Origin: a virus
UHGV virus genome: UHGV-1372088
DNA length: 64,000 nt
Reading direction: 5' to 3' (one strand)
The notes below the pieces were generated by a model. The model was not told the origin of the DNA. It searched no databases and was given only the letters and a program-made list of their open reading frames with translations. Below, one piece after another: positions 3,389-26,729 of the stretch. The translations under genes were made by a program, and so were the position numbers. Position 1 is the first letter of the stretch. The number at the start of each line of letters is the position of its first letter.

Positions 3389-3400
3389 CGAGATAAAAGT

Positions 3401-4068: not shown

Positions 4069-4071
4069 GGA

Positions 4072-9081: not shown

Positions 9082-9138
9082 TATGTATGTGCTTACATAT
9101 TAACATGGATCAAATTAAGGCTTAACTCACGGAAGATT

Positions 9139-9840
9139 ATGGGAATCAAAAAGGAAATACAAAGCCTGTCACCTTCGTCGGTGATAGAGCTTTTCATTTT
9201 GGATATGTCCGTTACCACCTCTGGCGGTAAGCGGTATTTCCACGCAGGTACGAACGAGATCCGCGACAGCATCGTCTGGCAGGGCGTGGTTTACGAGCCC
9301 TGGCCACTCAAAGCGACCGGGTTCGATATCTCCGGGCAGGGCACTCTGCCTTCACCGAAAATGTCCATCGCGAACTTTGGCGGAAGCATTTCAGCTGAAG
9401 TCCAGGCTAACGATGATTTGGTCGGCTGTACCGTCATTCGTAAACGCACACTGGCTCGCTTCCTCGATGCGGTCAACTTCTCAAGTGGCGTCAATCCAAC
9501 CGCCGATCCATCTCAGTTCTTCCCGGACGAAAGCTGGTTCGTCGAGCAAAAGACGCTGGAGACTTTCGAGGTCGTCGAGTTCGAGCTGTCCAGCGTATTC
9601 GAACTGATGGGCGTGAAGCTGCCGTATCGCCAGATCATCAAGAACACCTGCCCGTGGAAATATCGCGGCACAGAGTGTGGTTACACGGGTCCGTACTTCG
9701 ACAAAGACGATAAGCAGACCTCCATTTCTGGATCTGACTACTGCACTAAACGTCTCGACTCCTGCCGCGCCCGTAAAAACTACTTTGCGAACGGCATTAT
9801 CCACTTCGGCGGTTTTCCGGGGGCCACTCGTGTCTCTTGA
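9139..9840 (+). CDS. minor tail protein, lambda L-like
   Basis: 233 aa (lambda L 232 aa); C-terminal Cys cluster CPWKYRGTECGY...C...C as in the gpL Fe-S domain. Confidence 0.7.
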   Translation: MGIKKEIQSLSPSSVIELFILDMSVTTSGGKRYFHAGTNEIRDSIVWQGVVYEPWPLKATGFDISGQGTLPSPKMSIANFGGSISAEVQANDDLVGCTVIRKRTLARFLDAVNFSSGVNPTADPSQFFPDESWFVEQKTLETFEVVEFELSSVFELMGVKLPYRQIIKNTCPWKYRGTECGYTGPYFDKDDKQTSISGSDYCTKRLDSCRARKNYFANGIIHFGGFPGATRVS

Positions 9841-10633: not shown

Positions 10634-11208
10634 TTCACGTTCAATTGGGCGGTGCGCTGGCGACCAACTTCGGTCGCCATTGGCATTTAAACGTCCGAAA
10701 CGCCAAACAAGCCTTTGATTTGATCGACGCCAATAAGCCTGGGTTTAAGGCGTGGATTCGCAAACACGCGAAGTCGATTAGCAAGTACCACATCCAGATT
10801 ACAAACAAGCAGGGCCACAAGTATTCAATGGATGAAACCGAGTTTCAGATGATGGGTGAAAGCGACAACATCGCCAAAATCCGCATCACGCCAGTTCCGC
10901 ATGGTAGTGGCGGGAAGGGCTTTGCGTGGTTTGAAACCGTTGTTGGGGCTGCACTTTTGGTTGCCTCGATTTTCATTCCAGCGCTGGCCCCTTTAGGCAT
11001 AGCTCTCCTGATGGCCGGCGTCCAGGGGCTTCTCTCCCCACAAGCGAAGAAAGCACAGGGGCCGGCTAACAACTCTGATGCGACCTACTTTGACGGCCCA
11101 CAAAACACGACGAATCAGGGCAACCCGGTTCAGCTTAATTACGGTGAAGAAATTCTCGTCGGATCTCAGACCGTGTCCTCATCAATCACCATTGAACAGA
11201 CCGCATAA
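10621..11208 (+). CDS. tail assembly protein, lambda I-like
   Basis: 195 aa; hydrophobic central segment; position between K-like and J-like genes. Confidence 0.55.
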   Translation: MSELVHVQLGGALATNFGRHWHLNVRNAKQAFDLIDANKPGFKAWIRKHAKSISKYHIQITNKQGHKYSMDETEFQMMGESDNIAKIRITPVPHGSGGKGFAWFETVVGAALLVASIFIPALAPLGIALLMAGVQGLLSPQAKKAQGPANNSDATYFDGPQNTTNQGNPVQLNYGEEILVGSQTVSSSITIEQTA

Positions 11209-11216
11209 GGGCGTAC

Positions 11217-14200
11217 ATGGAACAGTTCAAAAAAAGAAAACTGCCTGAAATTATCGCAGGTGCTGGCGGCAAGAAGTCGTCCGGCTCGTCAAGGACACCG
11301 GTAGAGGCGGACGACACCGTTAACTCGAATGTCAAAGTATCCATTCTGGACTTGCTGGGTGAGGGCGTTATTGGCGGTCTGAAGGACGGCGCGAAGTCGA
11401 TCTTCCTTAACGACCTGCCATTGCAGAACTCTGACGACACTTACAACCACTCAGGCGTAACCTGGTGGTTCCGTGATGGCTCTCAGGACCAGAGCATCAT
11501 CGAAGGCTTCGACTACACCGAAACGCCTAAAACCATCGGCTTGCAGGTCAAGAAAACGAGCGCCGTTACGATGGCGGTCGACAGTGACAGCGCTGACCGC
11601 TTCCGCGTCATTCTGAAATTCCCATCGCTGAAATCTGTCGACAAAAAGACGGGTGACACCAGCGGTACTTCTGTCACGTACAAATTCCAGGTGAGCAGTG
11701 CCGGCGGCGCATTTGTTGACGTGGCGCCAGAGGGCGAGTCCTCCGGGACCGTTACGCTGACCGCGAAGAAGGCCGGCGTTTATTATCGAAGCTACATACT
11801 CAACCTGCCGAAGCCGGGCTCTAAGTATCAGGTTCGTGTTGTTCGTGTTACCGACGACAACAAAGACACGACCTACCTTGCCAACGATATCTATGTGGAT
11901 ACCGTCGGGGAGATCATCAACACCAACATGAACTACCCGAACTCTGCGCTGGTCGGCCTTCGCGTCAACTCAGAGCAGTTCGGCTCGTCCATGCCGTCTC
12001 GTTCGTACCTGATTAGCGGTATGAAGATCCGCGTCCCGTCAAACTACGATGAAGTCACCAACGAATACCGAGGGACATGGGACGGTTCGTTCAAACTGAT
12101 GTCGTCCAGTAACCCGGCATGGATTCTGTATGACCTCGTGACCAATAAGCGCTATGGTCTGGGTGAGTTCGTCAGAGAGTCAATGTTTGACCTTGGCCAG
12201 CTTTATCAGATCGGCCGGTACTGCGATGCGCTGGTTGACGACGGCTTTGGTGGCAAAGAGAAACGATTCGCCATCAACACGCAGATCACCACGCTTCAGG
12301 ACGCCTATCGCTGCGTTCAGGATATTGCTGGTGCTTTCCGTGGGATGGTTTATTGGGCCGGCGGCATGGTTCATGTGACGCAGGATAGCCCGTCAGACCC
12401 GATCGCCATCTACTCAAACTCCAACGTAATTGATGGTCGATTCTCCTACAAAGGCTCTGCCCGTAAGGATCGCCCTTCTGTCGCGCTTATCACCTACAAC
12501 AACAAAGAAGACAATTACAAGCAGAATATTGAGTATGTCGAAGACTTAGAAGCCATTGAGCGCTACGGGATACGCAAGACGGAGTCTGTAGCGTTTGGTT
12601 GTACTTCTCGTGGCATGGCTCATCGTGTGGGCTTGTGGACGCTTTATACAGGGCGTATGGAGTCGGACGTTATCACGTTCCAGACAGGGATGGACTCAGC
12701 ATTCCTCGTTCCGGGCGACGTCATCCTGATTCACGACAAGTTCCGCGCCGGCCGTCGTAATTCTGGTCGTGTTGTCGCATCCACCGCAAACAGCATTACA
12801 CTGGACTCTACGGTCGACATGACCAAGGCTGGCACCATCACCTTCATTAACGCTGAAGGCCGGATGATTAGCCGCGACATCCTTGAATCTGGCGTAGTGA
12901 GCAAAGTCACCTTTAAAGATGCAGTGAACGAGGCCGACCGCCCGGTTGCTGATGGCATCTGGGTGATTTCTCAAAGCGATCTGAAACCGCTTCAGGCTCG
13001 CGTAGTTGGTGTTACCCAGGGTGAAGACGGCGTTGGTAGCACGATCACCTGTATCCAGAATAACCCGTCCAAATATGCTGCCATTGATGACGGCGCCGTG
13101 CTCATCCCGCAAAACACGACCGTCCTTGATCCGACATTCTCGAAACCCGAGAACCTGAAGATCACTGAAGGAACATACCTGTCCTCTCCGGGCAACCTAA
13201 ACGTATCGCTGACGGCGACATGGGAAGGTAAATCCGCAGAGTATTGGGTTAGCTGGCGCCGATCCGATGCCGGTAATGTGTCCAACTGGCAGACGGCCAA
13301 AGTTAACGAAGAGCAGTTCGAAGTTAAGCCGGTCGCGGAGAGCGGCAAATACGACTTCCAGGTGTACGGCGTTTCCGTCTCCGGGCGTAAGACCGAAATC
13401 CTCAGCACAACGTATCAGGTTCTGGGAACCATGACGCCTCCGGGCGCTCCATCGTCTCTGACTGCCGTTGGCGACTACCGCCAGATTATCCTTGGCTGGT
13501 CTAACCCGTCGTCCGTCGATTTGGATCACATCCAGATTTACGCCTCGAAGACCAACGACGTCACCAAGGCGACTCTGCTGGCTAAATCCACGACCACCAA
13601 CTTCACCCACAGCGGTCTGGAAGATTCGGTAACGTGGTACTACTGGATTCGCTCGGCCAACAAACGCGGCATGACCAGTGACTGGAGCTCGAAGCTCGGT
13701 ACGTCGGCAATGACGCGCGATGTATTGTCGTTCCTGCAAAACAAGATCACCGAATCCGAGCTCGCCAAAGACCTTCTGGCTGATATCGACAGCAAGGCGG
13801 TTGCTGCTGAGGTTGATGCTTCCATTGAAGACGCGAAGTCCGAAGCTACCGCGCAGGTTGAGGCCGCCAAGAAAGAGGCGTCCAGCGCCTTAAGCGCAGC
13901 CCAGGTCACGCTGAACAACGCCATCAATCAGGAAGCGACTGACCGCAATAATGCTGTTGCTGACGAAGCTAAGCAGCGCTCCCAGGCTATTTCGGCAGAA
14001 GCTGATGCGCGTACCAAGGCTATCTCCGATGAGGCTATCGCTCGCGCTGACGCAATTACAAAAGAGTCCGACACTCGCACGAGGGCAATGGCCGACGAAG
14101 TCACCGCCCGAAACAAGGCTGTCGCTGACGAAGCCGCCGCCCGGACAAAGGCTGTGTCTGACGAGGCTGTCGCTCGCGCCAAGGCTGTGTCTGATGAGGT

Positions 14201-17200
14201 GGCGGCCAGAACCAAAGCTGTCGCAGATGAGGCCACCGCTCGCGCCAAGGCGATATCTGACGAAGCCGCCGCACGCGCTACGGCAATTAGCGATTCGGTG
14301 GCGGTTGAGGCTACCGCTCGCGCGAAGGCTATCGCAGACTCCGCGTCGTCTCTCAGCGACAAAATTGAAAAAGAGGTCACCGATCGCGTCAAGGCTGTTT
14401 CCGATCTGGACACCAAAACCGCAAACGCGATCTCGTCCGAATCATCAAGCCGCATCGCTGCCATTTCTGATGAGGCAAAGACTCGCGCTGACGCTATTCT
14501 TCAGGAGAAGAACAGCCGCCAGGCGGAAATTAAAAATGTGTCCGCTCAAATGCAGACCGCCAACGAGTCTCTGGCGCAGCAGATTTCACAGGTCGCAGCG
14601 GGAACAGGCGAGCAGTTCGACAGTCTCAAGATCTGGTATTTCGATGCACAGACAACTGAAGGGTGGAGCGGCAACAAGAGCGCTATTCTGTCTGCTGACG
14701 GGTGGATTCGCTCAGGCAATGGCGTGGATGCATGGCTGACATCGCCAGCAGGTCTTGCTATCGCCGGCGCATCCTATCGCTTCATGAAGATGCGTATCCG
14801 AAAAGTGGGTAATCCAGTTTGGGAAGGTGCAATTCGCTGGATCACCAAAAGCGGCGATAGCTTCAACAACACCAATTTCATCACGGTAAGCGAACCGGAG
14901 TACAACGCCCAGGGTGTTGCTACGCTGACGGCAAGCGATATCAAGTGGAATAACGATACCGTTCACCAGATTCGTCTTGATCTTTCCATCTCGACCGATG
15001 ATTCAAACTACATCGAAGTCGACTGGATCGCCGTCGGCCGACCAACTCCGGGCGCCGGCATGGCCGCTCTGCAAGATGAGAAGACCGCCCGTACCAACGC
15101 TGATGCAGCAGAAGCAGCCAGCCGCTCAACTCTGGCAACACAGCTGCGTGGCTCTTATGACGGGACTGACATTACAAAGCTGAGCTCTGGCCTCATCTTC
15201 CAGGAGCAGCAAGCGCGTGTAACTGCCGATAAAGTAGAGGCGACCGCACGTCAGTCACTGGAAACCAAAGTGAATGACAGCGTATCGAGTATCAACAAGT
15301 CGCTCGATACGCTGAACACGAAAGACCAGGCGATGGCGTCAGACATCACCGGCCTTAAATCTTCTTTAGACGACAAAGCTGATGCGTCGGCCGTTCAGAC
15401 ACTCAAGGCGACGGTCGAGCAGCAGGGCTCGAATATCTCTACTCAGGGACAGTCGATCACCAAGCTTCAAGGCGATCTGAATACCACCAACACCAATGTT
15501 GGGAAGAAAGCCGACCAGACGGCCATGACCGCGTTACAGGGAACTGTGACCCAGCAGGGCAAGGATATCGCGGCAGCCAACAGCAGCATCTCCACCCTGA
15601 AGTCTTCTCTGGACACTACGAACGATGCGGTGGCCAAGAAAGCTGATGCGACGGCGGTCAGCGATCTGTCTTCTCGCGTAAGCGCGACAGAAGGTAGCGT
15701 GTCCAGTCAGGGCGACAGCATTGTCCAGCTGAATAACTCACTGAGCAACGCTCTGGCGGACTCTGACGCTTCAGCCAAGACTCCGAACAACCTGATCGTC
15801 AACCCATCGTTTGAGCGTGGTATGGACGGTTATATTGGCGCATCCAGTCTCAGTACGGTCGTTACTGTTCAGATACCGCATGTCGGCACAAAAGCACTGA
15901 AAATTGACCCAGGTAGCTCCGTATCTCCGGGCCAGTACATCGATTTTGTCAAAGGCCGTACTTATGAGATCGGCGTCTGGGTTAAACAGGTTTCTGGAAC
16001 AACAGATAATGGGCAGGGCAACAACAAGCTGCGAGTGGGTAATAGTGCTGGAGCGCCAGTGTTTGAGGTCCCGTTCGCAAACCTCACCATTGACTGGACG
16101 AAAGTTAGCAAACGATGGAAGGCTACCGAGACGGGAAGTCTGCCCGTTACGCTGAGCAACTATCTGACCGCCGGCAACCGCTACTTCGATGACTTCTACG
16201 TTATCGACGTAACCGACGCCGTGAACATCGATGCGAGCGCCTCCGCGATTTCTTCGTTGCAGAGTACCGTCACGCAACAAGGTAAAGACATTTCGTCGCA
16301 GTCCACCAGCATCGCTGGCCTGAACAACAGCCTGAACACAACCAACGAAAACGTCGCGAAGAAGGCTGATTCCTCTGCGGTCCAGACGTTGCAAAATACT
16401 GTGACGCAGCAGGGCAAGGATATCTCTGCCGCCAATAGCGACATCACCAATCTGAAAGGCAGTCTGGATGCGACAAACGATAAAGTCGCTACCAAGGCTG
16501 ACGCTTCAGCAATGAGTGATCTGGCGTCTCGCGTATCCCAGAATGAGAAAGGCATTGCCACGCAATCCGACTCTCTGACCAAATTGAGTAACAAGGTGTC
16601 CAGCATTGACGTCGGCGGTGTGAACCTCATCACCAACGGCGATATGAGTGCGGCGCCGGTATCTCTGCTTTCCACTACGACCAGCTTTAAATCGTTCGAT
16701 CGTACCGTGACTGCCGATGTCCGTGGCATGTCAGTGGTGACGCCTCGCTCAATAACGCTGTCCGTATGGTTTAAAGAGCTGTCCTCTGGGTTCGGGACGA
16801 CGAAGCCGTTCACCAGTGTTGTGATTGGTAAAAGCGCTGCCGGCGATAATTGGGGCGTTCGTTTCTATGCCAGCAACGGAAGTGTGTCGCAGAAAGGGGA
16901 TATGTTCGTCTGGACCGGTACGATTAACCTGAAAGCCGGCGACACGCTGTTCAATGACCCGACGACGATCCGCTTCATTCTGGAAGATAAAACCCAGAAG
17001 ACTGGCGCCATCTTCTACCGCGTTAAGTTGGAAAACGGCAACATCGCAACCGACTGGTCCGCAAGCCCGGACGAAGTGAAGTCAGGTCTGGATGCCAATG
17101 CGTCTGCACTGAATGCACTAACGACGCGCGTTGCCTCAACCGAGGGTAATGTTGAATCTCAGGGCAACAGCATCACTTCTCTGAAGAACGACCTGGCGAC

Positions 17201-20200
17201 AACCAACGCCAACGTTTCGAAGAAAGCTGACTCGTCCGCTGTAGCGACAATCCAGAGCACGGTAACGCAGCAGGGCAAGGACATTGCATCCTCCGCGTCC
17301 GACATCTCATCGCTGAAGAATAGTCTCGCCACAACGGACAGCAACGTCGCGAAGAAGGCGGACGCCTCAGCACTGCAAACTCTGCAAAACACGGTAACAC
17401 AGCAGGGTAAAGATCTGACCAGCGTTGGCAATCGTGCAACGGCGCTGGAGAACAGCCTCAAAACGACGAACGACAATGTTGCGACCAAGGCCGATGCCTC
17501 CGCGCTGTCAACGCTTCAGAATACCGTATCACAGCACGGTGATTCCATTGCGTCTCAGAGCGACTCAATAACCAGTCTGAAAAACAGCGTCGGTTCTTTG
17601 GTTAACATGGGCGACAATCTGGTTCAGGACTCCAGCTTTGACAACGGCGGGCAAACGTTCAGGACTCAGCAAAATTCTGGAACATCTGGAAGTATTGTTG
17701 CGTTTGGCGCGTTTGGTGAAAACTCGGCCGGTGTGCGTATGGTTAAAGTCAACGGTACGTCGCCTGGTCTGTTCGCTAACGGCAAACTGCCAGTTCCGGT
17801 AAATGGCGCGAGAAAATACCGTTACATTGTTCGCGCGAAGGGTGTTTCCGGGGCAATGAATATGCTGCTGCGCCGCTGGAATTTTAACGGCAATACGGAA
17901 GGGGCGTATGAAGACAAGAACAATACGCTGACAACCGACTGGCAAACCATCACCTGGGACACATCCTTCTCGCCGAAAGACGGCGTTGACGGTCAGTCCT
18001 TTGGCATCTACTGCCATCCGAACAATGGCGAGATCTGGATTGATTCATTCCAGGTGTTCGACATTACCGATGCGACCAACAATGAGACGACGGCCAGCGC
18101 GTTAAGCAATCTGTCGACGACCGTTTCCAGGCAGGGTGAAACCGTCACCTCTCAGGGTACGGCGATCACCAAGTTGCAGAATGACCTCAGCTCCACCAAG
18201 ACCGATCTGGCTAAGAAAGCGGATGCATCGGCGCTTCAGACACTGCAAAGCACCGTGACCGATCAGGGTAAGACGCTGACCAGCCAGGGTGATGCGATCA
18301 CGGCGCTGAATAACACCGTTAATACGGTGAAAGGTGATGTGGCAAAGAAAGCCGACTCCTCTGCGCTTCAGAATCTTCAGAGCACCGTAACACAGCAGGG
18401 TAAAGACATCTCCACCAATGCCAGCAACATCACGGCGCTGACTGGAAACCTTGCCACCACAAACGCTGCCGTCGCAACGAAAGCTGATGCTTCTGCGTTG
18501 AACAACCTCACAACGAGAGTGACCCAGAACGAGAAGAACATCTCTTCTCAAAGTGACGCCGTAACGAAGCTGTCCAACACGGTAAGCAACATCGCGGTAG
18601 GTAGCGCAAACCTGATTCCGAACTCCGGCACAATGGAGGGATGGTCTGACGTCATTAGCGACACCTATCGTGGCAACAAGGTCTTCTCGTTCACGAGAAA
18701 AGCCAACAGCTCAAGCTACGTTCAGTCGAACGAGATTGTGCTGGCCGGCCCGGTGGACTCCGACAGCTACGTCTACAGCTTCTGGGCGAAAGCCGCGAAG
18801 GATGGCACTGTCATCAACGCCTACTTCTACAACCCAAGCAACACGACCGGTTCTGAAACAAGCCAGGGTGTTAAGGGTAGCAGTTCTGATGGCTCTGCGG
18901 CGATCACACTGACCACCTCATGGGCGCGTTATTGGGTTAAGTGGACTCATTCTCCGACAACCGGAACGAAGCGCTTCATTCCGGCGCGACTGAACAATTC
19001 CTCAACTGCCGACCAGACTGTCTTCATCAGCTCGCCGCAGCTGGAAACCGGCAACGTCGTAACCGACTGGAAAGCGGCAGACAGTGATTTCGCCTCAGCC
19101 TCCGCGCTCAGTACGCTGACCAGCCGTGTAACCTCGGATGAAGGCGTTATTTCATCTCAGGGTTCGGCAATCGCCGATCTGAAAAACAGTCTGGCGACAA
19201 CAAACTCGACCGTTGCAACAAAGGCGGACGCTTCAGCGTTGAGTTCGCTTCAGAACACCGTAACCAAGCAGGGTACGGACCTGAAGTCGGCGTCTGATTC
19301 CATCACGACGCTGAAGAACAGCATCGCGGCGACTGATGCCAATGTTGCCAAGAAAGCGGACGCATCCGCTCTCCAGACGCTCCAGAGCACCGTCTCTACG
19401 CAAGGGGATAAGATTGCCAGTCAGGGTAATTCTATCACCAGCCTGGGCAACTCACTGGACACCGTGAAGGGCGATGTTGCGAAGAAGGCGGACACTACGG
19501 CTTTGAATAACCTTTCTACTCGGGTTAGCAATGCCGAAGATAAGATCAGCAGCAGCAGTGACGCCATCACTTCGCTGAACAGCTCGCTGAATCAGCAGTC
19601 TAAGCGCGGCGCAAACATCCTGCCAGACGGGACGTTCGAGAGCTATTCGAGCGGGTACAATATCACCAATGGTCGCGTCATCGTGACTGCTGACGATTCT
19701 CACGGCGGAAACAAATGCATCCGTGTGACACGTCCGAACGACTACACTAATTATACAGATAACAGTGACAACCACATCTTCAGCGGCTTCCAGGTTCGCG
19801 ACAACGCGGTATTCTATGTTGAGTGCTGGGTTAAGCTGGACGCCAAGAGCACGACGATGGATGGCTCGGTGCAGATTGCGGTCGGCATGTCGTTGCAGTA
19901 TCAGGATAACTCCTGGCAGTGGCCGGCACTCATTAAGTCGGCAAAAGATCTGTCCGCAGACACCTGGACGAAAGTCAGTGGCTATCTGAAGAGCAGCAAG
20001 AGCGGTATCAAACAGGCGATGGTGCGGATCTCCATACCAAACGTATCGACTGTTAAGGCGGGTAACTCCTTCCTCGTCGATGATTTTGTCATTACCGACG
20101 TGACAGACGCCTATAATGCCCAGCAGACGGCTGATGCCACTGCGAGCGCGGTATCAACGCTTCAGACGACTGTGTCCAGGCAGGGCGACAGCATCACCTC

Positions 20201-23200
20201 GCAGGGCGACAGCATCACAACCCTGAATAATGGCCTGGCCACGGCGAACAAAGCCATTGGCACCAAGGCTGATGCCTCCGCGCTGTCATCGCTGCAAAAC
20301 ACCGTTACCCAGCAGGGTGAAGACGTTGCTGCCAACACCAACAATATCACTGCGCTGTCAAATCAGGTTGTCAACGGCAAGCAGGACACTTGGGCTCGCC
20401 GCATCTACAAGTGCCAGCTTGCCAACGCCGGCACCGAACCGACGTTTAGCGACATTCAGGGGCTTTCCCCGGTATTTATGGATGAAGTGGCCGACGCAGC
20501 CAGGATGGACTTCTCTGGCGCCGGATCGTATGTAGTCGCGCATTACAAGGCGATGGTTCGTGTTGCTGCGGATACCACCATCTCTGTGTCGCCTGGCTCT
20601 CGTGTGTTTGATGACTCCGGTGCGGTGTATGTGAATGGTGTTCGTCAGGCTGCTGCGTTGTCTGGAACAGCTGTACTCAATTTCACACTGTCCGCCGGCT
20701 GGAATACTGTAGAGTTTCTGGTTAACCAGTGGACCGGTAATGCCTATGTCAATCTGGGCTTCAAGCTGGGCGACAAGGTTGCCGAGCTGTATTCTGGTCT
20801 GGGCGTCTCTTCACTGTCTTCGGCGCTGAACTCGATCAGCTCCAACGTCAGCAAGGTGGGTGATCAGGTTTCCAGCAACAGCACGGCGATCACCTCTCTG
20901 AAGAACGGCCTGAGCGATACCAACTCTACCGTTGCGAAGAAAGCGGACGCTTCGGCTCTTCAGACGCTGCAAAACACGGTTACTCAGCAAGGTAAGGATA
21001 TTGCAAGCCAAAGCGACAGTGTTACGAATCTCAGCAACGCACTAAGTAACGTTTCTATTGGTGGCGTCAACCTGATCAAAAACTCAGGCGACATGGCCGG
21101 GTGGTCTGGTAAAACCAATGAAATCTTCCGTGGCAATGCGGTGATTAGCGCGACTACTAAAGCGGGCAGTTCCTACCGAGATCTCAAGGAGATTACTCTC
21201 GACGCTCCAGTCGACAATGCAGAGTACGTTTACAGTTTCTTTGCAAAAGGCGGTGAGAACGGCCAGAGCATGACCGCTTACTTCTACAATCCTAACTCGA
21301 CGATATCTAGTGTTAGTAGCCAGGGTGTGTCAGGCGGTGATGTCGATGGTCGTATGTCATTCACTTTGACAACTGAGTGGGTTCGTTATTGGGTTAAGTG
21401 GAAGCAGAAGCCGGGAACTGGATCTAAGAGACTAATCCTTGCTCGCATCCAAGCATCTTCGACGAAAGATCAGACCGTCTCTATCACCAGCCCTAAGCTG
21501 GAAGTTGGCAATATGCCTACAGAGTGGTCTCCGGCGCCGAGCGATATGGCATCGTCTAACGATCTGTCATCGCTGAAGACTACGGTTGACGCGAATAGCG
21601 GCGCTATTCAGTCTGTAACCTCTCGCGTCCAGAAAACTGAAGACAATATCTCCACGCAGAATACCGCGATCACTAAGCTTCAGGGTGATTTGTCGACCAC
21701 CAACAATCTGTTTTCCACGAAGGCTGATTCCACCGCGCTTCAGACGCTGTCAGGTCGCGTCGATAAGACGGAGTCCAGCATCAGCACCCAGAACGATGCA
21801 ATAACCAAGCTGAACAGCAGCCTTGATACCACAAATAAAGCTGTGGCTAAAAAGGCGGAGCAGTCGTCTCTCGATACGCTGAGCGGCCGGGTATCCAGCA
21901 CTGAAAATGGGATCACGGCGGCGAACTCCAGCATCACGTCTCTGAATGCGGCTATTCGCGCAGAGAACGCGAGCAGTGGGGATTTGATTACTAACCCTAC
22001 ATTTGACCCTCAGTACGCTCAGATGGGCTTTACCGTCGTCACAACCGACACAGATGGTGTTCCAGCAAACTGTCCATTCAGATATGCGGCTAAACTTGCG
22101 TCCCGTGACCATCATCCGAACTTCAACGCCATCGTTGCAACATTGGGCGATGTGTTTGAGATTTCGGTGCTGGTGGCGTGCGGCGCTGGGAATGCTGACT
22201 TTAACCTCTATCTTTGCACAGCAAACGGCCCAACTGGTGGGATAGGTGCCCCGCTTTATAATGGCGGAAATACCAAAGCTACAAGCACCTGGACTCGCGT
22301 AACATGGAAGTTCACTGTTAGCCAGGCAATGGTTGACAAAGGCTACATTCGTCCGTTCCTGCAAATCAACCAGTCTTCACCGTTCGGTACGATCTGGTAC
22401 GTCACTGACTGGCATATGCGCAACATCACTGCGGCATCAAAGGCGCAGGATACGGCGAATGCCACCTCTAAGGCGGTCGATTCTCTGACGTCCACGGTGA
22501 ACCAACAGGGCAGCGATATTTCCTCGATCGGCTCTCGTACAACGTCGCTTGAGAATGGTCTTAGCACCACAAACGCCAACGTTTCGAAGAAGGCTGATTC
22601 TTCTGCGCTTCAGACGCTACAGAACTCGGTAACACAGCAAGGCAATGACATTTCTGGCCAAGGTTCTCGCGTAACGTCTCTGGAAAATAACCTGACGGCC
22701 GGAGCAAACCTCATTCCTAACCCAGCGATGCTTAACGGCGCTCAGGGTTGGGGTGGTTCTGAGACAACTGTTGATGGTTACGCGGCGGTCGTCAGCAGCT
22801 CAGGCTGGGGACCATCGTCGTCCTACTTCCAAGTGACGCCAGGCGACATTATCGATTTGAGCCTGATGAGCCAGAGCGCGGGCGCAGCATCCATCTCATG
22901 GGGACTCCGCTTCGACGGCCCTGGACTGAGCAATTTCTGTCTCTACGCCCCTGCGTTGACCTTCGCGGCTGGCGAGAAGAAGAGTGTATCTGCGGCTATT
23001 ACCGTACCTGCTGGCGCAACAAAGGCGATGTTCCAGGCAAGCGCTAGGGCGACTTCCGCACGTACCGTATATAACATCATTGCTACCCGCCGTGATGCTG
23101 GAACCAAAGCCAACAGCTCTGCGATTGATACGTTGAACAGCACCGTCAAAACGCAAGGTGACACGCTTAGCTCGATCGGAAGTCGTACAACTTCGCTGGA

Positions 23201-26200
23201 AAATGGGCTGAGTAGCGCTAACAGCGCTCTCTCACTGAAAGCGGACGCGTCGGCACTGTCATCGCTGACAAATACAGTGACCCAACAAGGCAAGGATCTG
23301 GATGCAGCAGAAGCCAATATAACTGCGGCGAACACCAGCATCACCTCCATGCAGGCGTCTCTGACTCGTCGCACTGTATTTACGGTAACGGCGAAAGGCA
23401 ACGGTAACAGCGCTAATCACGGTTTCTTTGATGAGTCAGGTAAAAATCTGTTTACGCCTGGTCGCAGCTATGCGCTGATCACGTTTAAAGCGAATAGCGA
23501 CGGCTCGACGGTCATTAATACCAGCAAAACCTATGACGTTTTTGGCTCTGCCAACAACGGGAAGGCGATGTCTGACGATATTGCGGCTCTGGCTAATGGC
23601 GTTTACGTTTGCGTGATGACTTATGACGAGCCGTCGGGTCAGCGTAACTCGATTGCATCTGCCTTAGAGTTGCTCGGTGGCACAACTGAAGTTATTAACT
23701 CTCTGCCATATCGCGGCGCGTACATTCTCCTTGGCCGTAAAGGCATGAAGGCCGGCGACGGTCTGGAGTTACGCGCACCTACAGGTGGTGACTCCAGCGC
23801 ATTTATTTCCACGTCCGTTGAGTTTGTGAACGGGGTAATGATGGGGTTGGGCGCCGCCGGCGGTGTGATGATGAAGGCGGATGCGAACGCCAGTGCAATC
23901 ACCACTCTGCAAAACACCGTTAAGCAGCAGGGCGACACTATCGCTTCGAGCAGTAGTGCCATCACCTCTCTGCAAAACGACATGAGGACGGTTAATGACA
24001 ATGTCTCTAAAAAGGCAGATGCATCGGCGCTTCAGACTTTGCAGAACACGGTAACGCAGCAGGGTAAAGATATCTCTACCCAAAGCGCGTCGCTGACGCA
24101 GCTCAATAACAGCCTCAGCGCGACGAATGCCAGCATCGATGCGTCGGGCAAGATCCCTGGGAACCTGATCGTCAACTCGTCATTCGAGCGCGATAAAGAT
24201 GGCTACACCGGCTGGAGCTCTATCGCCTCCGTCATCGCAGCGTCGGTGCCACACTCAGGAAGTAAAATCCTCAAGCTGGCTGCCGGCGGATCTGTGTTAG
24301 TCGGGCAGGACGTTACCTATCTGAAGGGTCGCACCTATAAAATCGGCGCATGGGCTAAGCAGGATTCAGGCACCGTTATTCAGGCTGCGGACAACACGAA
24401 GTTCCGTATCGCGGATAGCACAGGTTTGCTGGCTAGTAGTGTTTACGGTCCTTTCACGTCAAACTGGCAGGAGATTAGCTTCACCTGGAGGCCGGGTAAA
24501 GATGTGACAGCGGCGACACAGATCACCGCCTACCTGTCCGCCGGTGCGATGTATTTCGACGACTTCTACGTTATCGACATCACCGACCGCGTCGATCTGG
24601 ATGCCACGGTGTCTGCGGTTTCCGGTCTGACGACGAGAGTGTCCAATGCTGAAGGGAATATTTCTTCCCAATCCGACAGCATCACCACTCTGAACAACGG
24701 TCTTAGCACTCTGAACAAGACGGTCAGCACCAAGGCCGATGCCACGGCGCTGTCTTCACTTCAGAATACCGTGACGCAGCAGGGCAAGGATATTTCGTCG
24801 GCGAGCGGAAGCATCACCAGCCTTCAGAGCAGCCTGAATACGATCAAGGTTCAGAGCAACCCTTGGATTGACGGTACGTTTGAAACCTATGACAACAATC
24901 AGCAGCTGGGCGGCAGCACTGCGATTGTAACGACGGACTTCAAGAACAGCGGCAACAAATGTCTGAAGGTTACTCGCCCAGCCAATACCAGCGGGAATTC
25001 CGACAAGACGATCGGCTCCTATTCTGCGGTGCGCCAGAGCGCGAAATATCGCGTTGAGTTTTGGGCTATGATGCCGGCAAGTGAAGCCCCGCCGTCTGGC
25101 TGGACTGTGGTCGTTGGTCTGCACTCCATCAACAAAGATGGTGGGAATGACTGGCAGGGCATTGCGTTCGACGAGGCTGGTCTTGGCGGTCGCGACCAGT
25201 GGGTTAAGTTTACTGGTGTAGTGAAAGTGAGTCCGAGCGTTACCCGTAGCCATGTATGGATTTCTACTCGTGGTCAGAGTGGCTCCAACACACCTGGATA
25301 CGCGGTGTACATTGATGATTTCGTCATTACCGATATCACTGATGCTGCGGATGCACAGGCTACGGCGGATGCGAACGCAACAGCAATCTCATCGTTGCAG
25401 ACGAAGGTCAGCGATATCGATGGGAAAGTGACTGCCCAAACGTCGCAACTGTCTTCCATGCAGTCGAAGGTAGATGCGTCTTCTTCGAAAGTGGATCAGC
25501 TGTCTAAGACCATTTCGGACAGTCAGAGCACTCAGGCATCGTTGAACACCAGTCTTCAGTCTCAGATTGATGCCCAGGCTTCGGCCAACATCAAAAACCA
25601 GGCTGATCTGAACTCGGCGGCCACGAGCATTGCGACCATTAAGTCTACGCAGTCCACACAGGCTACGCAGCTTAGCGCAATTGCCAAGCAGCAAACCGAT
25701 ATGACGGCATCGCTGGACAATCAGTCGGCATCTATTCAGACGCTTCAGGAGTCTGTCGCGAACAACGATTCTCTGAAGAGCACCTGGATGGTGAAGATGG
25801 AGACGAACAGCGCCGGCCAGAAATATGCAGCGGGTATCGCGCTGGGTGTGGATGGGAAGAGCCAGCAAAGCCAGTTCTTGGTTCAGGCAGATCGCTTCGC
25901 GCTGATTAATACCAGCAACGGCAATACGACGACACCGTTTGTGATCGATAACGGTGTGACGTACATGAATGCCGCTTACATCAAAGATGGGGCGATCACG
26001 AACGCGAAAATTGGTGGTGAGATTAGGTCTGACAACTTCGTAGACGGATCTCAGGGCTGGCGTGTCGGAAAGGATGGTTCTTCTCAGTTCCACAACGTCG
26101 TTGTCCGAGGACATGTTGAGGCCAACAGTGGATCGTTCAGAGGCGCTGTTTATGCTACTGACGGTTGGTTCCAGGGCACCGTATACGCGAACCGTATTGA

Positions 26201-26729
26201 GGGCGACATTGGTTCCTTCGCCATCAACATCGCACAGCACCGCACGCGTAAAGTGCCGAAGGCGACATGGCAATGGTTCGAGCTGGCCAGATTCCGTCGC
26301 CAGAGCTTCGACCAGGTGATCAACATTCGCGGCGGTCTATTGCAGACCGACAGCATCACCATCGACGGCGGCGCGAAACTCCGGGCGGGTATGTCGTATT
26401 CTTCCGGCGCAGATGGAGGCCTTAATCCAGGATTCCTGTCACACGCCATGTTGTTGCGTGCCACTGGCGCAACTTCTGGCGGCGGCAGCATGGAGATCGG
26501 CATTGAGCTTATGTACGAAACAGGTGGGTGGGACCGCCTGCTGACGGCACAAGGGGAGATGAACGTCGACAATATGTCGTTTGTTGTTCCAGCTGGCAGT
26601 GGGGATGCAGTTCTTCGTTATGGTTGTTATCTTGACCGTAACGGGCAAATGGTATTAACCATCCTTTCACGATTCGACGCTTTTTCGGCGCGGAATAACA
26701 ATGTAATTCGTGGATCGTCCACACCGTAA
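11217..26729 (+). CDS. giant central tail fibre / host specificity protein (lambda J-like N- and C-termini with about 10 inserted beta-sandwich + repeat-stalk modules)
   Basis: Uninterrupted 15.5-kb ORF (5170 aa); N-terminus resembles lambda gpJ; dozens of about 35-aa repeats (ADASALQTLQNTVTQQGKDI...SLNNSL.TTN.NVAKK); about 10 beta-rich domains each ending ..DDF.ViTDvTDA; C-terminus ADRFALINTS... J-like. Confidence 0.85.
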   Translation: MEQFKKRKLPEIIAGAGGKKSSGSSRTPVEADDTVNSNVKVSILDLLGEGVIGGLKDGAKSIFLNDLPLQNSDDTYNHSGVTWWFRDGSQDQSIIEGFDYTETPKTIGLQVKKTSAVTMAVDSDSADRFRVILKFPSLKSVDKKTGDTSGTSVTYKFQVSSAGGAFVDVAPEGESSGTVTLTAKKAGVYYRSYILNLPKPGSKYQVRVVRVTDDNKDTTYLANDIYVDTVGEIINTNMNYPNSALVGLRVNSEQFGSSMPSRSYLISGMKIRVPSNYDEVTNEYRGTWDGSFKLMSSSNPAWILYDLVTNKRYGLGEFVRESMFDLGQLYQIGRYCDALVDDGFGGKEKRFAINTQITTLQDAYRCVQDIAGAFRGMVYWAGGMVHVTQDSPSDPIAIYSNSNVIDGRFSYKGSARKDRPSVALITYNNKEDNYKQNIEYVEDLEAIERYGIRKTESVAFGCTSRGMAHRVGLWTLYTGRMESDVITFQTGMDSAFLVPGDVILIHDKFRAGRRNSGRVVASTANSITLDSTVDMTKAGTITFINAEGRMISRDILESGVVSKVTFKDAVNEADRPVADGIWVISQSDLKPLQARVVGVTQGEDGVGSTITCIQNNPSKYAAIDDGAVLIPQNTTVLDPTFSKPENLKITEGTYLSSPGNLNVSLTATWEGKSAEYWVSWRRSDAGNVSNWQTAKVNEEQFEVKPVAESGKYDFQVYGVSVSGRKTEILSTTYQVLGTMTPPGAPSSLTAVGDYRQIILGWSNPSSVDLDHIQIYASKTNDVTKATLLAKSTTTNFTHSGLEDSVTWYYWIRSANKRGMTSDWSSKLGTSAMTRDVLSFLQNKITESELAKDLLADIDSKAVAAEVDASIEDAKSEATAQVEAAKKEASSALSAAQVTLNNAINQEATDRNNAVADEAKQRSQAISAEADARTKAISDEAIARADAITKESDTRTRAMADEVTARNKAVADEAAARTKAVSDEAVARAKAVSDEVAARTKAVADEATARAKAISDEAAARATAISDSVAVEATARAKAIADSASSLSDKIEKEVTDRVKAVSDLDTKTANAISSESSSRIAAISDEAKTRADAILQEKNSRQAEIKNVSAQMQTANESLAQQISQVAAGTGEQFDSLKIWYFDAQTTEGWSGNKSAILSADGWIRSGNGVDAWLTSPAGLAIAGASYRFMKMRIRKVGNPVWEGAIRWITKSGDSFNNTNFITVSEPEYNAQGVATLTASDIKWNNDTVHQIRLDLSISTDDSNYIEVDWIAVGRPTPGAGMAALQDEKTARTNADAAEAASRSTLATQLRGSYDGTDITKLSSGLIFQEQQARVTADKVEATARQSLETKVNDSVSSINKSLDTLNTKDQAMASDITGLKSSLDDKADASAVQTLKATVEQQGSNISTQGQSITKLQGDLNTTNTNVGKKADQTAMTALQGTVTQQGKDIAAANSSISTLKSSLDTTNDAVAKKADATAVSDLSSRVSATEGSVSSQGDSIVQLNNSLSNALADSDASAKTPNNLIVNPSFERGMDGYIGASSLSTVVTVQIPHVGTKALKIDPGSSVSPGQYIDFVKGRTYEIGVWVKQVSGTTDNGQGNNKLRVGNSAGAPVFEVPFANLTIDWTKVSKRWKATETGSLPVTLSNYLTAGNRYFDDFYVIDVTDAVNIDASASAISSLQSTVTQQGKDISSQSTSIAGLNNSLNTTNENVAKKADSSAVQTLQNTVTQQGKDISAANSDITNLKGSLDATNDKVATKADASAMSDLASRVSQNEKGIATQSDSLTKLSNKVSSIDVGGVNLITNGDMSAAPVSLLSTTTSFKSFDRTVTADVRGMSVVTPRSITLSVWFKELSSGFGTTKPFTSVVIGKSAAGDNWGVRFYASNGSVSQKGDMFVWTGTINLKAGDTLFNDPTTIRFILEDKTQKTGAIFYRVKLENGNIATDWSASPDEVKSGLDANASALNALTTRVASTEGNVESQGNSITSLKNDLATTNANVSKKADSSAVATIQSTVTQQGKDIASSASDISSLKNSLATTDSNVAKKADASALQTLQNTVTQQGKDLTSVGNRATALENSLKTTNDNVATKADASALSTLQNTVSQHGDSIASQSDSITSLKNSVGSLVNMGDNLVQDSSFDNGGQTFRTQQNSGTSGSIVAFGAFGENSAGVRMVKVNGTSPGLFANGKLPVPVNGARKYRYIVRAKGVSGAMNMLLRRWNFNGNTEGAYEDKNNTLTTDWQTITWDTSFSPKDGVDGQSFGIYCHPNNGEIWIDSFQVFDITDATNNETTASALSNLSTTVSRQGETVTSQGTAITKLQNDLSSTKTDLAKKADASALQTLQSTVTDQGKTLTSQGDAITALNNTVNTVKGDVAKKADSSALQNLQSTVTQQGKDISTNASNITALTGNLATTNAAVATKADASALNNLTTRVTQNEKNISSQSDAVTKLSNTVSNIAVGSANLIPNSGTMEGWSDVISDTYRGNKVFSFTRKANSSSYVQSNEIVLAGPVDSDSYVYSFWAKAAKDGTVINAYFYNPSNTTGSETSQGVKGSSSDGSAAITLTTSWARYWVKWTHSPTTGTKRFIPARLNNSSTADQTVFISSPQLETGNVVTDWKAADSDFASASALSTLTSRVTSDEGVISSQGSAIADLKNSLATTNSTVATKADASALSSLQNTVTKQGTDLKSASDSITTLKNSIAATDANVAKKADASALQTLQSTVSTQGDKIASQGNSITSLGNSLDTVKGDVAKKADTTALNNLSTRVSNAEDKISSSSDAITSLNSSLNQQSKRGANILPDGTFESYSSGYNITNGRVIVTADDSHGGNKCIRVTRPNDYTNYTDNSDNHIFSGFQVRDNAVFYVECWVKLDAKSTTMDGSVQIAVGMSLQYQDNSWQWPALIKSAKDLSADTWTKVSGYLKSSKSGIKQAMVRISIPNVSTVKAGNSFLVDDFVITDVTDAYNAQQTADATASAVSTLQTTVSRQGDSITSQGDSITTLNNGLATANKAIGTKADASALSSLQNTVTQQGEDVAANTNNITALSNQVVNGKQDTWARRIYKCQLANAGTEPTFSDIQGLSPVFMDEVADAARMDFSGAGSYVVAHYKAMVRVAADTTISVSPGSRVFDDSGAVYVNGVRQAAALSGTAVLNFTLSAGWNTVEFLVNQWTGNAYVNLGFKLGDKVAELYSGLGVSSLSSALNSISSNVSKVGDQVSSNSTAITSLKNGLSDTNSTVAKKADASALQTLQNTVTQQGKDIASQSDSVTNLSNALSNVSIGGVNLIKNSGDMAGWSGKTNEIFRGNAVISATTKAGSSYRDLKEITLDAPVDNAEYVYSFFAKGGENGQSMTAYFYNPNSTISSVSSQGVSGGDVDGRMSFTLTTEWVRYWVKWKQKPGTGSKRLILARIQASSTKDQTVSITSPKLEVGNMPTEWSPAPSDMASSNDLSSLKTTVDANSGAIQSVTSRVQKTEDNISTQNTAITKLQGDLSTTNNLFSTKADSTALQTLSGRVDKTESSISTQNDAITKLNSSLDTTNKAVAKKAEQSSLDTLSGRVSSTENGITAANSSITSLNAAIRAENASSGDLITNPTFDPQYAQMGFTVVTTDTDGVPANCPFRYAAKLASRDHHPNFNAIVATLGDVFEISVLVACGAGNADFNLYLCTANGPTGGIGAPLYNGGNTKATSTWTRVTWKFTVSQAMVDKGYIRPFLQINQSSPFGTIWYVTDWHMRNITAASKAQDTANATSKAVDSLTSTVNQQGSDISSIGSRTTSLENGLSTTNANVSKKADSSALQTLQNSVTQQGNDISGQGSRVTSLENNLTAGANLIPNPAMLNGAQGWGGSETTVDGYAAVVSSSGWGPSSSYFQVTPGDIIDLSLMSQSAGAASISWGLRFDGPGLSNFCLYAPALTFAAGEKKSVSAAITVPAGATKAMFQASARATSARTVYNIIATRRDAGTKANSSAIDTLNSTVKTQGDTLSSIGSRTTSLENGLSSANSALSLKADASALSSLTNTVTQQGKDLDAAEANITAANTSITSMQASLTRRTVFTVTAKGNGNSANHGFFDESGKNLFTPGRSYALITFKANSDGSTVINTSKTYDVFGSANNGKAMSDDIAALANGVYVCVMTYDEPSGQRNSIASALELLGGTTEVINSLPYRGAYILLGRKGMKAGDGLELRAPTGGDSSAFISTSVEFVNGVMMGLGAAGGVMMKADANASAITTLQNTVKQQGDTIASSSSAITSLQNDMRTVNDNVSKKADASALQTLQNTVTQQGKDISTQSASLTQLNNSLSATNASIDASGKIPGNLIVNSSFERDKDGYTGWSSIASVIAASVPHSGSKILKLAAGGSVLVGQDVTYLKGRTYKIGAWAKQDSGTVIQAADNTKFRIADSTGLLASSVYGPFTSNWQEISFTWRPGKDVTAATQITAYLSAGAMYFDDFYVIDITDRVDLDATVSAVSGLTTRVSNAEGNISSQSDSITTLNNGLSTLNKTVSTKADATALSSLQNTVTQQGKDISSASGSITSLQSSLNTIKVQSNPWIDGTFETYDNNQQLGGSTAIVTTDFKNSGNKCLKVTRPANTSGNSDKTIGSYSAVRQSAKYRVEFWAMMPASEAPPSGWTVVVGLHSINKDGGNDWQGIAFDEAGLGGRDQWVKFTGVVKVSPSVTRSHVWISTRGQSGSNTPGYAVYIDDFVITDITDAADAQATADANATAISSLQTKVSDIDGKVTAQTSQLSSMQSKVDASSSKVDQLSKTISDSQSTQASLNTSLQSQIDAQASANIKNQADLNSAATSIATIKSTQSTQATQLSAIAKQQTDMTASLDNQSASIQTLQESVANNDSLKSTWMVKMETNSAGQKYAAGIALGVDGKSQQSQFLVQADRFALINTSNGNTTTPFVIDNGVTYMNAAYIKDGAITNAKIGGEIRSDNFVDGSQGWRVGKDGSSQFHNVVVRGHVEANSGSFRGAVYATDGWFQGTVYANRIEGDIGSFAINIAQHRTRKVPKATWQWFELARFRRQSFDQVINIRGGLLQTDSITIDGGAKLRAGMSYSSGADGGLNPGFLSHAMLLRATGATSGGGSMEIGIELMYETGGWDRLLTAQGEMNVDNMSFVVPAGSGDAVLRYGCYLDRNGQMVLTILSRFDAFSARNNNVIRGSSTP

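Follow-up and report, generated by a model that had tools for sequence, protein, structure and literature searches.

A predicted giant J-type central tail fiber with putative carbohydrate-binding domains in a probable Klebsiella phage-plasmid

Giant tail proteins related to lambda gpJ have already been recorded in Klebsiella phages. The 2004 description of phiKO2 by Casjens et al. is said to have noted that the central tip tail fiber protein is exceptionally long. Gp21 of phiKO2, which is N15-like, has 3433 amino acids (aa) and is annotated as "similar to lambda J protein"; the J protein of KpLi5, also N15-like, has 3792 aa, and the 3381-aa "tail protein" of EKq1/VLCpiS8 type in the virulent 48-kb phage EKq1 takes up 21% of the EKq1 genome. 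In all three, stalk repeats of 44 aa and carbohydrate-binding module (CBM) cassettes lie between a J hub and a J tip, with four to six module copies per gene. Here we describe a 5170-aa relative, encoded in a 64,000-nucleotide stretch of UHGV virus genome UHGV-1372088 (the whole stretch is referred to below as the window). It is the largest protein of this poorly characterized family that we have seen. No domain-by-domain description of giant J proteins was found in the literature searched, and the map given below is more complete than any that was found. We lean, with modest confidence, toward reading the protein as a J-type central fiber for depolymerase-free, multivalent glycan binding, which would thread the capsule and adapt to hosts cassette by cassette.

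A phenotype has been described for the S8 phages, of which VLCpiS8c is >98% identical to EKq1, itself a carrier of the same modules as the window protein. As described by Beamud et al. 2023 (PMC9989827), the first receptor-binding protein (RBP) of the S8 phages (2,309 and 3,201 aa) contains two to three CBMs, lacks a depolymerase fold, and has downstream of it a second RBP that bears an endosialidase (S74) chaperone domain. The host range of these phages is broad and only loosely tied to capsule type; they produce no haloes and show little depolymerase activity, and the authors suggested a CBM-aided, noncatalytic passage through the capsule (PMC9989827). Whereas the S8 phages are virulent, have 48-kb genomes, and are known by their phenotype, the window element is a temperate phage-plasmid and is known here from its sequence. 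In the S8 protein, two to three CBMs were detected by its authors; in window J, 13 inserts are resolved and the homology to J can be demonstrated.

The gene is a single ATG-started open reading frame (ORF) of 5170 codons, with zero stops and zero ambiguous bases. Its predicted product has a pI of 5.5 and is rich in Ser, Ala, and Thr. In the N-terminal part, Pfam FNIII-A_GpJ (aa 101 to 235; 97.3 bits, cutoff 27) and Phage-tail_3 (aa 361 to 521; 100.9 bits, cutoff 23) are accompanied by fn3, and the N-terminal Pfam matches together span aa 101 to 826. Phmmer aligned aa 20 to 859 with residues 3 to 837 of solved lambda J (8iyk_J; E = 1.5e-111); the F2 pyocin fiber matched at E = 2.6e-124, in an alignment extending to aa 1068. 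At the other end, Pfam Phage_Tail_Tip (DUF1983) matched aa 4841 to 4973 (138.6 bits, cutoff 22), and aa 4766 to 4975 match the tips of solved J-like proteins, lambda J residues 840 to 1001 among them. Because Pfam domains and solved structures match at both ends, and because the gene order (tape measure gene [TMP]-M-L-K-I-J) is that of the lambda gpJ/TipJ family, homology identifies the giant protein as a lambda gpJ homologue. An earlier reading of the same DNA from its letters and ORFs (the sequence-only reading) had proposed an uninterrupted 15.5-kb ORF behind M-L-K-I with J-like termini, far larger than a typical J; all of this stands, at exactly the coordinates given.

Lambda gpJ (1132 aa; 8iyk and 8xcj) is homologous to window J over its N-terminal 840 aa, its tip (residues 840 to 1001), and its gene order but lacks CBM, PA14, and ILEI inserts. 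In window J, the points that match lambda J residues 837 and 840 are ~3,975 aa apart, and the protein is ~4.6 times as long as lambda J and ~3.5 times as long as its closest non-Klebsiella relatives (~1460 aa). For the N-terminal part, the closest relatives are the J proteins of Salmonella, Citrobacter, and Escherichia coli SSU5/pHCM2 elements (1425 to 1462 aa; 68 to 69% identity over 865 aa). These proteins come from the same backbone family and share the proximal and distal coiled coils with window J but lack all of the 44-aa stalks and the globular inserts, designated D0 to D12. One SSU5-type J of 1460 aa aligns with aa 1 to 1132 and 4740 to 5013 only; since it matches nothing between aa 1132 and 4740, ~3,600 extra residues are accommodated inside the J coiled-coil region. 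The C-terminal 409 aa are 67 to 74% identical to the J C-termini of 48- to 55-kb Klebsiella siphophages, and the final 168 aa are common to other Klebsiella phage J proteins. Given this identity to ordinary siphophage tips, the distal receptor-binding domain is, as judged by alignment, the conventional one of ordinary Klebsiella siphophages. Compared with the giant J proteins of Klebsiella siphophages (PHROG 2589, 5911, and 21973), the window copy is ~1,400 to 1,800 aa longer, has 13 inserts, and resides on a different backbone, an SSU5-type circular phage-plasmid of ~104 to 113 kb. The gene and the regions of its product are as follows (HMM, hidden Markov model).

11217-26729, plus strand: giant gpJ-type tail tip/central fiber protein, 5170 aa and 546 kDa (ORF translation and intact orthologues)
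11217-13796, plus strand: J N-terminal tail-tip hub with FN3 domains, aa 1-860 (Pfam and phmmer)
13797-14606, plus strand: proximal coiled coil, aa 861-1130, with eight 11-aa (33-nt) DEA.AR.KAVS repeats (TRF period 33)
14607-15059, plus strand: D0, megatron-type putative carbohydrate-binding domain, aa 1131-1281 (phmmer E = 2.1e-4 to 8gtc_M)
15060-15377, plus strand: nonrepeat coiled-coil linker, aa 1282-1387 (sequence reading and weak repeat-HMM matches)
15378-15761, plus strand: stalk 1, three repeats, aa 1388-1515 (repeat HMM)
15762-16232, plus strand: D1, CBM_4_9 jelly roll, aa 1516-1672 (Pfam, 42.7 bits against a gathering cutoff of 25.9)
16233-16610, plus strand: 44-aa stalk, three repeats (repeat HMM)
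16611-17093, plus strand: D2, jelly roll of the D4/D7 subfamily, aa 1799-1959 (hhalign, D4 99.9%, D1 95.7%)
17094-17600, plus strand: 44-aa stalk, four repeats (repeat HMM)
17601-18089, plus strand: D3, CBM_4_9-like, aa 2129-2291 (hhalign, D1 99.9%; Pfam CBM_4_9 16.5 bits, below cutoff)
18090-18596, plus strand: 44-aa stalk, four repeats (repeat HMM)
18597-19091, plus strand: D4, jelly roll, paralogue of D7 at 54% identity, aa 2461-2625 (BLASTP; hhalign, D1 97.5%)
19092-19604, plus strand: 44-aa stalk, four repeats (repeat HMM)
19605-20135, plus strand: D5, CBM_4_9-like, paralogue of D12 at 37% identity, aa 2797-2973 (hhalign, D1 100%)
20136-20381, plus strand: 44-aa stalk, two repeats (repeat HMM)
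20382-20816, plus strand: D6, PA14-like lectin fold, aa 3056-3200
20817-21056, plus strand: 44-aa stalk, two repeats (repeat HMM)
21057-21590, plus strand: D7, CBM-like jelly roll, aa 3281-3458
21591-21974, plus strand: 44-aa stalk, three repeats (repeat HMM)
21975-22460, plus strand: D8, CBM_4_9-like, aa 3587-3748 (hhalign, D1 100%; 91% with shallow alignments)
22461-22709, plus strand: 44-aa stalk, two repeats (repeat HMM)
22710-23108, plus strand: D9, small domain of the jelly-roll family, aa 3832-3964 (hhalign with deep alignments, D1 96.8%, D8 96.9%)
23109-23360, plus strand: 44-aa stalk, two repeats (repeat HMM)
23361-23882, plus strand: D10, ILEI/FAM3-type (GG) domain, Pfam PF15711, aa 4049-4222 (Pfam ILEI, 41 bits against a gathering cutoff of 27)
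23883-24134, plus strand: 44-aa stalk, two repeats (repeat HMM)
24135-24602, plus strand: D11, CBM_4_9/CBM16-like, paralogue of D1 at 46% identity, aa 4307-4462 (phmmer and BLASTP)
24603-24851, plus strand: 44-aa stalk, two repeats (repeat HMM)
24852-25370, plus strand: D12, CBM_4_9-like, aa 4546-4718 (Pfam CBM_4_9 22.5 bits, just under cutoff; hhalign)
25371-25772, plus strand: distal coiled coil of degenerate repeats, aa 4719-4852 (repeat HMM)
25773-26729, plus strand: J "tail tip fiber" region and C-terminal receptor-binding domain, aa 4853-5170 and the stop codon

Intact frames were present in three other complete plasmids at 96.7 to 98% DNA identity: CP110757 (5171 aa), CP056499 (5171 aa), and CP037443 (5123 aa). 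In comparisons with these plasmid copies, Nei-Gojobori dN/dS was 0.146 to 0.159 for the whole gene, 0.11 to 0.12 for the stalks, and 0.16 to 0.18 for the inserts. Low values in all regions indicate purifying selection on every part of the 15.5-kb frame, and from these comparisons we conclude that the ORF is real, functional, and under selection. An assembly artifact, or a decaying pseudogene in a defective element, might be suspected from draft assemblies that often break within the gene, from the many "partial" entries, and from one record that annotates the distal 11.7 kb only. This explanation is effectively refuted by the four independent complete assemblies with intact 5123- to 5171-aa frames, by a dN/dS of ~0.15 throughout, and by isolated plaque-forming phages that carry homologues of 3381 to 3792 aa.

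A repeat HMM gave a stalk period of 44 aa (132-nt spacing in the DNA) and ~35 strong copies with individual E values of 1e-12 to 1e-19, arranged as 12 inter-domain stalks of two to four copies plus the degenerate distal coiled coil. These matches bear out the repeated domain-plus-stalk module of the sequence-only reading but revise its figures: the repeat is longer than the ~35 aa proposed, stalks contain fewer than four to eight copies, and the ~10 modules become 13 domains (12 inserts between stalks, plus D0). The repeat consensus, ADASALsTLQsTVTQQGKDISSQgsSITsLnNSLsTTNanVAkK, has hydrophobic core positions at 1, 5/6, 9, 13, 20, 27, 30, 34, and 41. Across all stalks, the Fourier hydrophobicity peak lies at 3.66 residues, equal to 11/3, so that 44 aa correspond to four hendecads; hendecad-type periodicity is typical of the stalks of bacterial fibrous adhesins. 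The 1521 stalk residues include no Pro and 0.07% aromatic residues, compared with 3.6% Pro and 10% aromatic residues in the inserts, where the hydrophobic period is of the beta type (2.19). In an AlphaFold2 (AF2) model of a D6 construct, both flanking repeats form a continuous helix (construct residues 2 to 35 and 180 to 225; pLDDT 56 to 81), and the stalk has weak similarity to the trimeric coiled coil of the P22 tail needle. The stalk is therefore predicted, from its sequence properties and the AF2 model, to be an alpha-helical coiled coil, as had been supposed. Helix-turn-helix hairpins that turn at the conserved Gly17 are disfavored: the AF2 helix is continuous, one-third of the repeats have Glu at this position, and the 3.66-residue period crosses the site. 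The stalk stretches between domains measure 82 to 171 residues and come in whole 44-aa units. Outside this array, alignment places the proximal coiled coil (aa 861 to 1130) on the coiled coil of the 1460-aa SSU5-type J and aa 4719 to 4852 on the distal coiled coil of SSU5-type J. The beads-on-a-string logic of window J resembles that of trimeric autotransporter adhesins and of the RTX adhesin MpIBP, with its PA14 domain, by analogy rather than by membership; no homology of the stalk to these bacterial fibrous adhesins was detected at the sequence level.

Twelve of the globular inserts, D1 to D12 (133 to 178 aa), are located between 44-aa stalks, and D0 lies upstream of them. A total of ten are CBM_4_9-like jelly rolls; the others are a megatron-type CBM, a PA14-like domain, and an ILEI/GG domain. 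All 13 belong, by profile or predicted fold, to domain types associated with glycan recognition and may themselves bind sugars, as the sequence-only reading supposed of its independent heads. The D0 match corresponds to residues 493 to 618 of the roseophage R4C megatron (8gtc_M), in which residues 482 to 629 form a "carbohydrate-binding" domain that is CtCBM11-like (PMC10276861). D0 was found in all pKpn-type J proteins examined, is absent from SSU5-type J, and is unrelated to D1 to D12. In hhalign comparisons with deep family alignments, built from ~280 related proteins, D1, D3, D5, D8, D11, and D12 form one superfamily (99.9 to 100%); D2, D4, and D7 form a subfamily (99.9% internally) that is linked to the D1 superfamily at 95.7 to 98%, and D9 joins it at 96 to 97%. 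With shallow alignments, D2, D4/D7, and D9 had remained unlinked, and the deeper alignments joined them. These domains share the beta-jelly-roll fold that defines the CBM_4_9 family (PF02018), although D2, D4, D5, D8, and D9 gave no CBM_4_9 Pfam match when scanned individually, a scan that covered neither D7 nor D11. D9 alone had no Pfam or PDB match, and its homologue search gave four fragments; when profiles of D4/D7, D6, and D9 were run against PDB sequences, only nonsignificant matches resulted. D11 matched solved CBM16 structures (2zew, 2zex, and 3oea; phmmer E of ~3e-6). The ILEI match of D10 spans aa ~4099 to 4176, with a weak phmmer match to FAM3C (5lc2; E = 0.018). For D6, structure prediction gave the beta-sandwich fold of PA14 domains, and Pfam PA14/GLEYA was not matched, nor was any family at E <= 1 except for a weak Cadherin-like match. 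D0, D6, and D10 each match phrog_2589.

The resemblance to carbohydrate-binding, jelly-roll domains that was first noticed by eye is mostly upheld (D1 by Pfam, D11 by CBM16, and others by profile-profile comparison or fold), the exceptions being D6 and D10, which have other folds. The start and end motifs proposed for every domain fared less well; both occur in D1 and D11 only, whereas D3, D5, and D12 share the ending D(D/S)F.V.D(I/V)TDA, and D2, D4, and D7 end otherwise. A separate observation concerns D6: all aligned homologues retain F-D-D-(S/T)-G without change, a stretch that may be equivalent to the calcium-binding Asp-Asp (DcisD) sugar site of PA14 lectins. Other phage proteins with CBMs, such as the "evolved" Dit/Tal proteins of Gram-positive siphophages, the CBM-cenC of Staphylococcus phage 812, and the R4C megatron, have one to few such domains in a compact baseplate; unlike these, window J would present a dozen CBM-type domains along a coiled coil of ~1,900 residues.

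In a different explanation, the protein is a spacer with structural knots. Length (reach or capture radius) would then be what matters, and the domains would act as register clamps or folding nuclei rather than as glycan binders. Stalk lengths quantized in 44-aa units, the interruption of the stalk by a domain at the intervals given above, and fiber lengths of 3480 to 5171 aa among relatives all fit a spacer, and the ligand-binding residues of the domains are putative. However, four lectin-type folds (CBM_4_9, megatron CBM, PA14, and ILEI/GG) have been recruited rather than one clamp fold, and the invariant FDD(S/T)G of D6 is compatible with the calcium-binding DD of PA14 lectins, although as a lead only. 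We consider a pure spacer quite improbable.

No depolymerase fold (right-handed beta-helix, pectate-lyase, or other catalytic fold) was found in J or in the 501-aa companion fiber encoded downstream, in which Pfam shows only the domains named here and Peptidase_S74. The S8 authors also raised, in passing, the idea of a polyprotein (PMC9989827), according to which the giant product would be cleaved into several separate receptor-binding proteins. The self-cleaving S74 chaperone in the neighboring gene could be taken to point the same way, but Pfam detects no protease, intein, or S74 domain within J itself. Furthermore, a single frame has the J hub at one end and the J tip at the other, the arrangement of all J proteins, and the stalks run on as continuous heptads or hendecads in which no linker or cleavage-like motif was recognized. 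Cleavage into separate proteins would therefore be extremely surprising.

To map the distribution of the module, aa 1388 to 1800 were searched by tblastn against 50,697 phage records, of which 81 matched. Klebsiella phages contributed 54 of these, Acinetobacter phages 24, and Brenneria phages 1; the remaining 2 are "Enterobacter" phages whose host is K. aerogenes. No match to the stalk-plus-CBM module was found in the Escherichia or Salmonella phages of this set, in which 727 Escherichia records carry a J-type C-terminus. In phiKO2, KpLi5, and EKq1, the 413-aa query matched at several places per genome with 49 to 65% identity (49% for phiKO2 Gp21 and 51% for KpLi5 J), and giant J genes are present on three unrelated Klebsiella phage backbones. 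Judged from these matches, the module is restricted to phages of heavily capsulated hosts. An exhaustive HMMER search with one module yielded 399 clusters at 50% identity; among the 147 representatives listed, 92 are >2,000 aa, 51 of those have a J N-terminus, and the longest, at 4797 aa, is shorter than window J. PHROGs "tail protein" profiles of 3,000 to 3,700 positions also match domains of the giant J. A homologue search with the J N-terminus gave J proteins of ~1,460 aa only; the family maximum in that database is ~2,043 aa, so that giants show there as fragments, and the lengths given here come from the records of plasmids and phages. A profile scan of genome contigs with the D1/D11 alignment returned four loci and, being limited by exact peptide patterns, is not a taxonomic census.

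In tail or fiber proteins of Acinetobacter myophages and siphophages (records H81, H105, and H110 to H124), the 44-aa stalk repeat was observed, sometimes together with the CBM module. The cassette system would therefore be common to phages of another heavily capsulated genus.

The same distribution bears on whether the domains bind glycans of the host animal, such as mucin, and keep virions in mucus, as has been proposed for Ig-like capsid decorations. Klebsiella inhabits mucosal surfaces, and PA14 and ILEI/GG domains are found in eukaryote-facing adhesins and glycan-related proteins. Nevertheless, gut phages of Escherichia and Salmonella are far more numerous yet lack the module, whereas phages of Klebsiella, Acinetobacter, and Brenneria have it, a pattern that points to a property of the bacterial surface, and the domains are located on the receptor-binding organelle. 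Retention in mucus as the main role is very unlikely.

Returning to multivalent binding of bacterial surface glycans, we base this proposal on the J-type ends, the stalk, the lectin-type inserts, the restriction to capsulated hosts, the lack of a depolymerase domain, and the S8 phenotype. By comparison with lambda J, each fiber would consist of three chains with a trimeric coiled-coil stalk, carrying 13 rings of three lectin-like domains (39 in total) at a spacing of 12 to 25 nm. With ~1,918 stalk residues at 0.148 nm each, the fiber would measure ~285 nm, or ~300 nm with domains and tip. The 1541-aa tape measure predicts a tail of ~230 nm at the usual 0.15 nm per residue, so the predicted central fiber would be longer than its tail. 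Capsular or other surface polysaccharide would be bound by the lectin-like domains through numerous contacts, each weak and reversible, which would retain the virion and allow the fiber to thread its way across a thick Klebsiella capsule. Binding of the distal J-type receptor-binding domain to a receptor in the outer membrane would follow and would set off DNA delivery as in lambda. Phages would adapt to their hosts by swapping entire domain-plus-stalk cassettes with related phages, or by acquiring or losing them, rather than by intragenic slippage.

Capsule thickness is of the order of 100 to 200 nm or more. A stronger version of the proposal, which we put forward tentatively and with the balance tilted against it, is a capsule-spanning "lectin rope" whose length, set in 44-aa units and cassettes, is matched to capsule thickness and whose 39 weak domains ratchet a depolymerase-less siphophage through the intact Klebsiella or Acinetobacter capsule to its outer-membrane receptor. 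If true, such a rope would be a distinct, nonenzymatic mode of capsule traversal that explains a capsule-type-independent host range and could be reengineered by cassette.

Several points weigh against multivalent capsule threading. Lambda J and general knowledge of coiled coils are the source of the trimeric state and extended geometry, and confidence in the AF2 models, which were built from shallow alignments, is medium (pLDDT 61 and 70). A CBM fold is no proof of sugar binding, and the ligand could be O-antigen, lipopolysaccharide core, or nonbacterial. For some hosts, S8 phage spots were clearer on acapsular mutants (PMC9989827); since these phages do better on acapsular cells of such hosts, the ligand may not be capsule. 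The association with capsulated hosts depends on database composition and on a single query module. Finally, the proposal gives no account of how the tail tip reaches the outer membrane after a ~300-nm fiber has bound distally.

The repetition seen in the protein is not matched in the DNA. The 44-aa repeats average 41% identity in amino acids and 49% in nucleotides, and at repeat positions with identical residues the codon is shared in 37.5% of cases, compared with 35.9% expected from the codon usage of the gene. Paralogous domain pairs are 50 to 59% identical in DNA, and the exact internal repeats reach 23 nt at most. Randomized synonymous sites between repeats and the shortness of exact repeats indicate that the duplications are old and that the gene is a poor substrate for slippage. 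The DNA-level repetitiveness assumed by the sequence-only reading is thus lacking. Its recombination hotspot holds in part: slippage driven by intragenic DNA repeats is rejected on these same grounds, while variation at the population level takes the form of cassette swaps, a single 44-aa indel, and rising dS.

In ten sampled relatives, J lengths were 3480, 4045, 4244, 4296/4297, 4494, 5123, and 5171 aa, with 7 to 12 inserts that are drawn from ~10 domain families and differ in order. Cassettes that are 93 to 99% identical between elements adjoin positions that hold 44 to 69% alleles. The CP037443 gene, otherwise 97% identical, is short of precisely one 44-aa repeat (132 nt; window positions 17364 to 17495), with only ~5 nt of exact homology at the junction. 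Against close relatives (loci L002, L003, and L004), dS rises from 0.01 in the hub to 0.09 to 0.14 in the inserts and 0.3 to 0.86 in the last 318 aa. It follows from this gradient that recombination has replaced the distal end much more frequently than the proximal one, and sequence comparison thus identifies the distal fiber as a hotspot of cassette-by-cassette exchange between phages.

Exchange of this kind might also serve a multi-specificity array, in which each head recognizes a different capsule (K) or O type and the heads act as alternative primary receptors that widen host range, in place of multivalent attachment to one polysaccharide. The inserts are diverse (paralogue pairs 37 to 54% identical, four fold families), positions are swapped for 44 to 69% alleles between elements, and a broad host range is known for the S8 phages, whose proteins are homologous. 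Yet the relatives examined draw on ~10 recurring domain families, compared with >80 known Klebsiella K types, many cassettes are 93 to 99% conserved across elements from different species, and the low insert dN/dS (0.16 to 0.18) gives no sign of diversifying selection. We regard one specificity per head as unlikely.

The other tail genes of the window are, in order, as follows.

4072-8697, plus strand: tape measure gene, 1541 aa
8737-9081, plus strand: M (Pfam Phage_min_tail)
9139-9840, plus strand: L (Pfam Phage_tail_L)
9677-10633, plus strand: ORF containing K (Prok-JAB and NLPC_P60)
10621-11208, plus strand: I (phrog_32 tail assembly protein)
26783-28288, plus strand: companion fiber gene, 501 aa (Pfam Peptidase_S74, 55.8 bits; phrog_1980 tail fiber protein)

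The Peptidase_S74 intramolecular chaperone of the companion fiber is located at its C-terminus (aa 388 to 443). A companion fiber gene lies downstream of the giant J in most relatives checked, including EKq1 and KpLi5, with the exception of phiKO2. Further along the window, genes of an SSU5-type phage-plasmid backbone were identified.

30047-30736, plus strand: ParA
32423-33772, plus strand: DnaB-like helicase
36811-38205, plus strand: ATP-dependent DNA ligase
44994-46016, plus strand: tyrosine recombinase
47031-50437, plus strand: CobT/VWA and AAA_5 pair (CobT/CobS-like)
50629-52998 and 53056-54252, plus strand: DNA Pol III alpha, in two ORFs
57565-58632, plus strand: RecA homologue

The giant J gene matched 370 records of a plasmid collection, of which 363 are from Klebsiella; nearly all are nonmobilizable, and those examined closely are 104 to 113 kb. 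Based on the backbone genes of the window and these mostly Klebsiella, 104- to 113-kb plasmid matches, the element is assigned by gene content to the Klebsiella SSU5-type phage-plasmids of the "pKpn" group (as defined in PMC7969092).

The host range of Klebsiella phages is usually dictated by capsule-specific depolymerases, which limits phage therapy. Phages and phage-plasmids with a giant, CBM-studded J appear to pass the capsule without an enzyme, and host range is unusually broad in the homologous S8 phages. A domain map with 13 lectin-type domains, quantized 44-aa units, and exchangeable cassettes makes enzyme-free capsule passage testable through constructs, fiber dimensions, and swaps, and the main interest of window J is as a thoroughly mapped case on which depolymerase-independent capsule traversal can be tested. 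In clinical Klebsiella, resistance genes are also found on SSU5-type phage-plasmids, and the adsorption organelle bears on the spread of these elements.

Two minor observations concern database records. A stalk-plus-CBM module with 56% identity to that of the window was found in an assembly labeled Limoniibacter endophyticus KCTC 42097, a non-enterobacterial genus (NZ_BMZO01000013.1, a 52-kb contig, positions 6947 to 7789; locus L016), which could reflect either a contaminating contig of a Klebsiella-type phage or phage-plasmid or a genuinely wider distribution. In CP056499 (L003; locus positions 3001 to 18516), the annotation that covers only the distal 11.7 kb of J begins at locus position 6844, and the 5171-aa frame is intact. 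Together with the many family entries marked "partial," this suggests that giant J genes are routinely underannotated or broken in draft assemblies.

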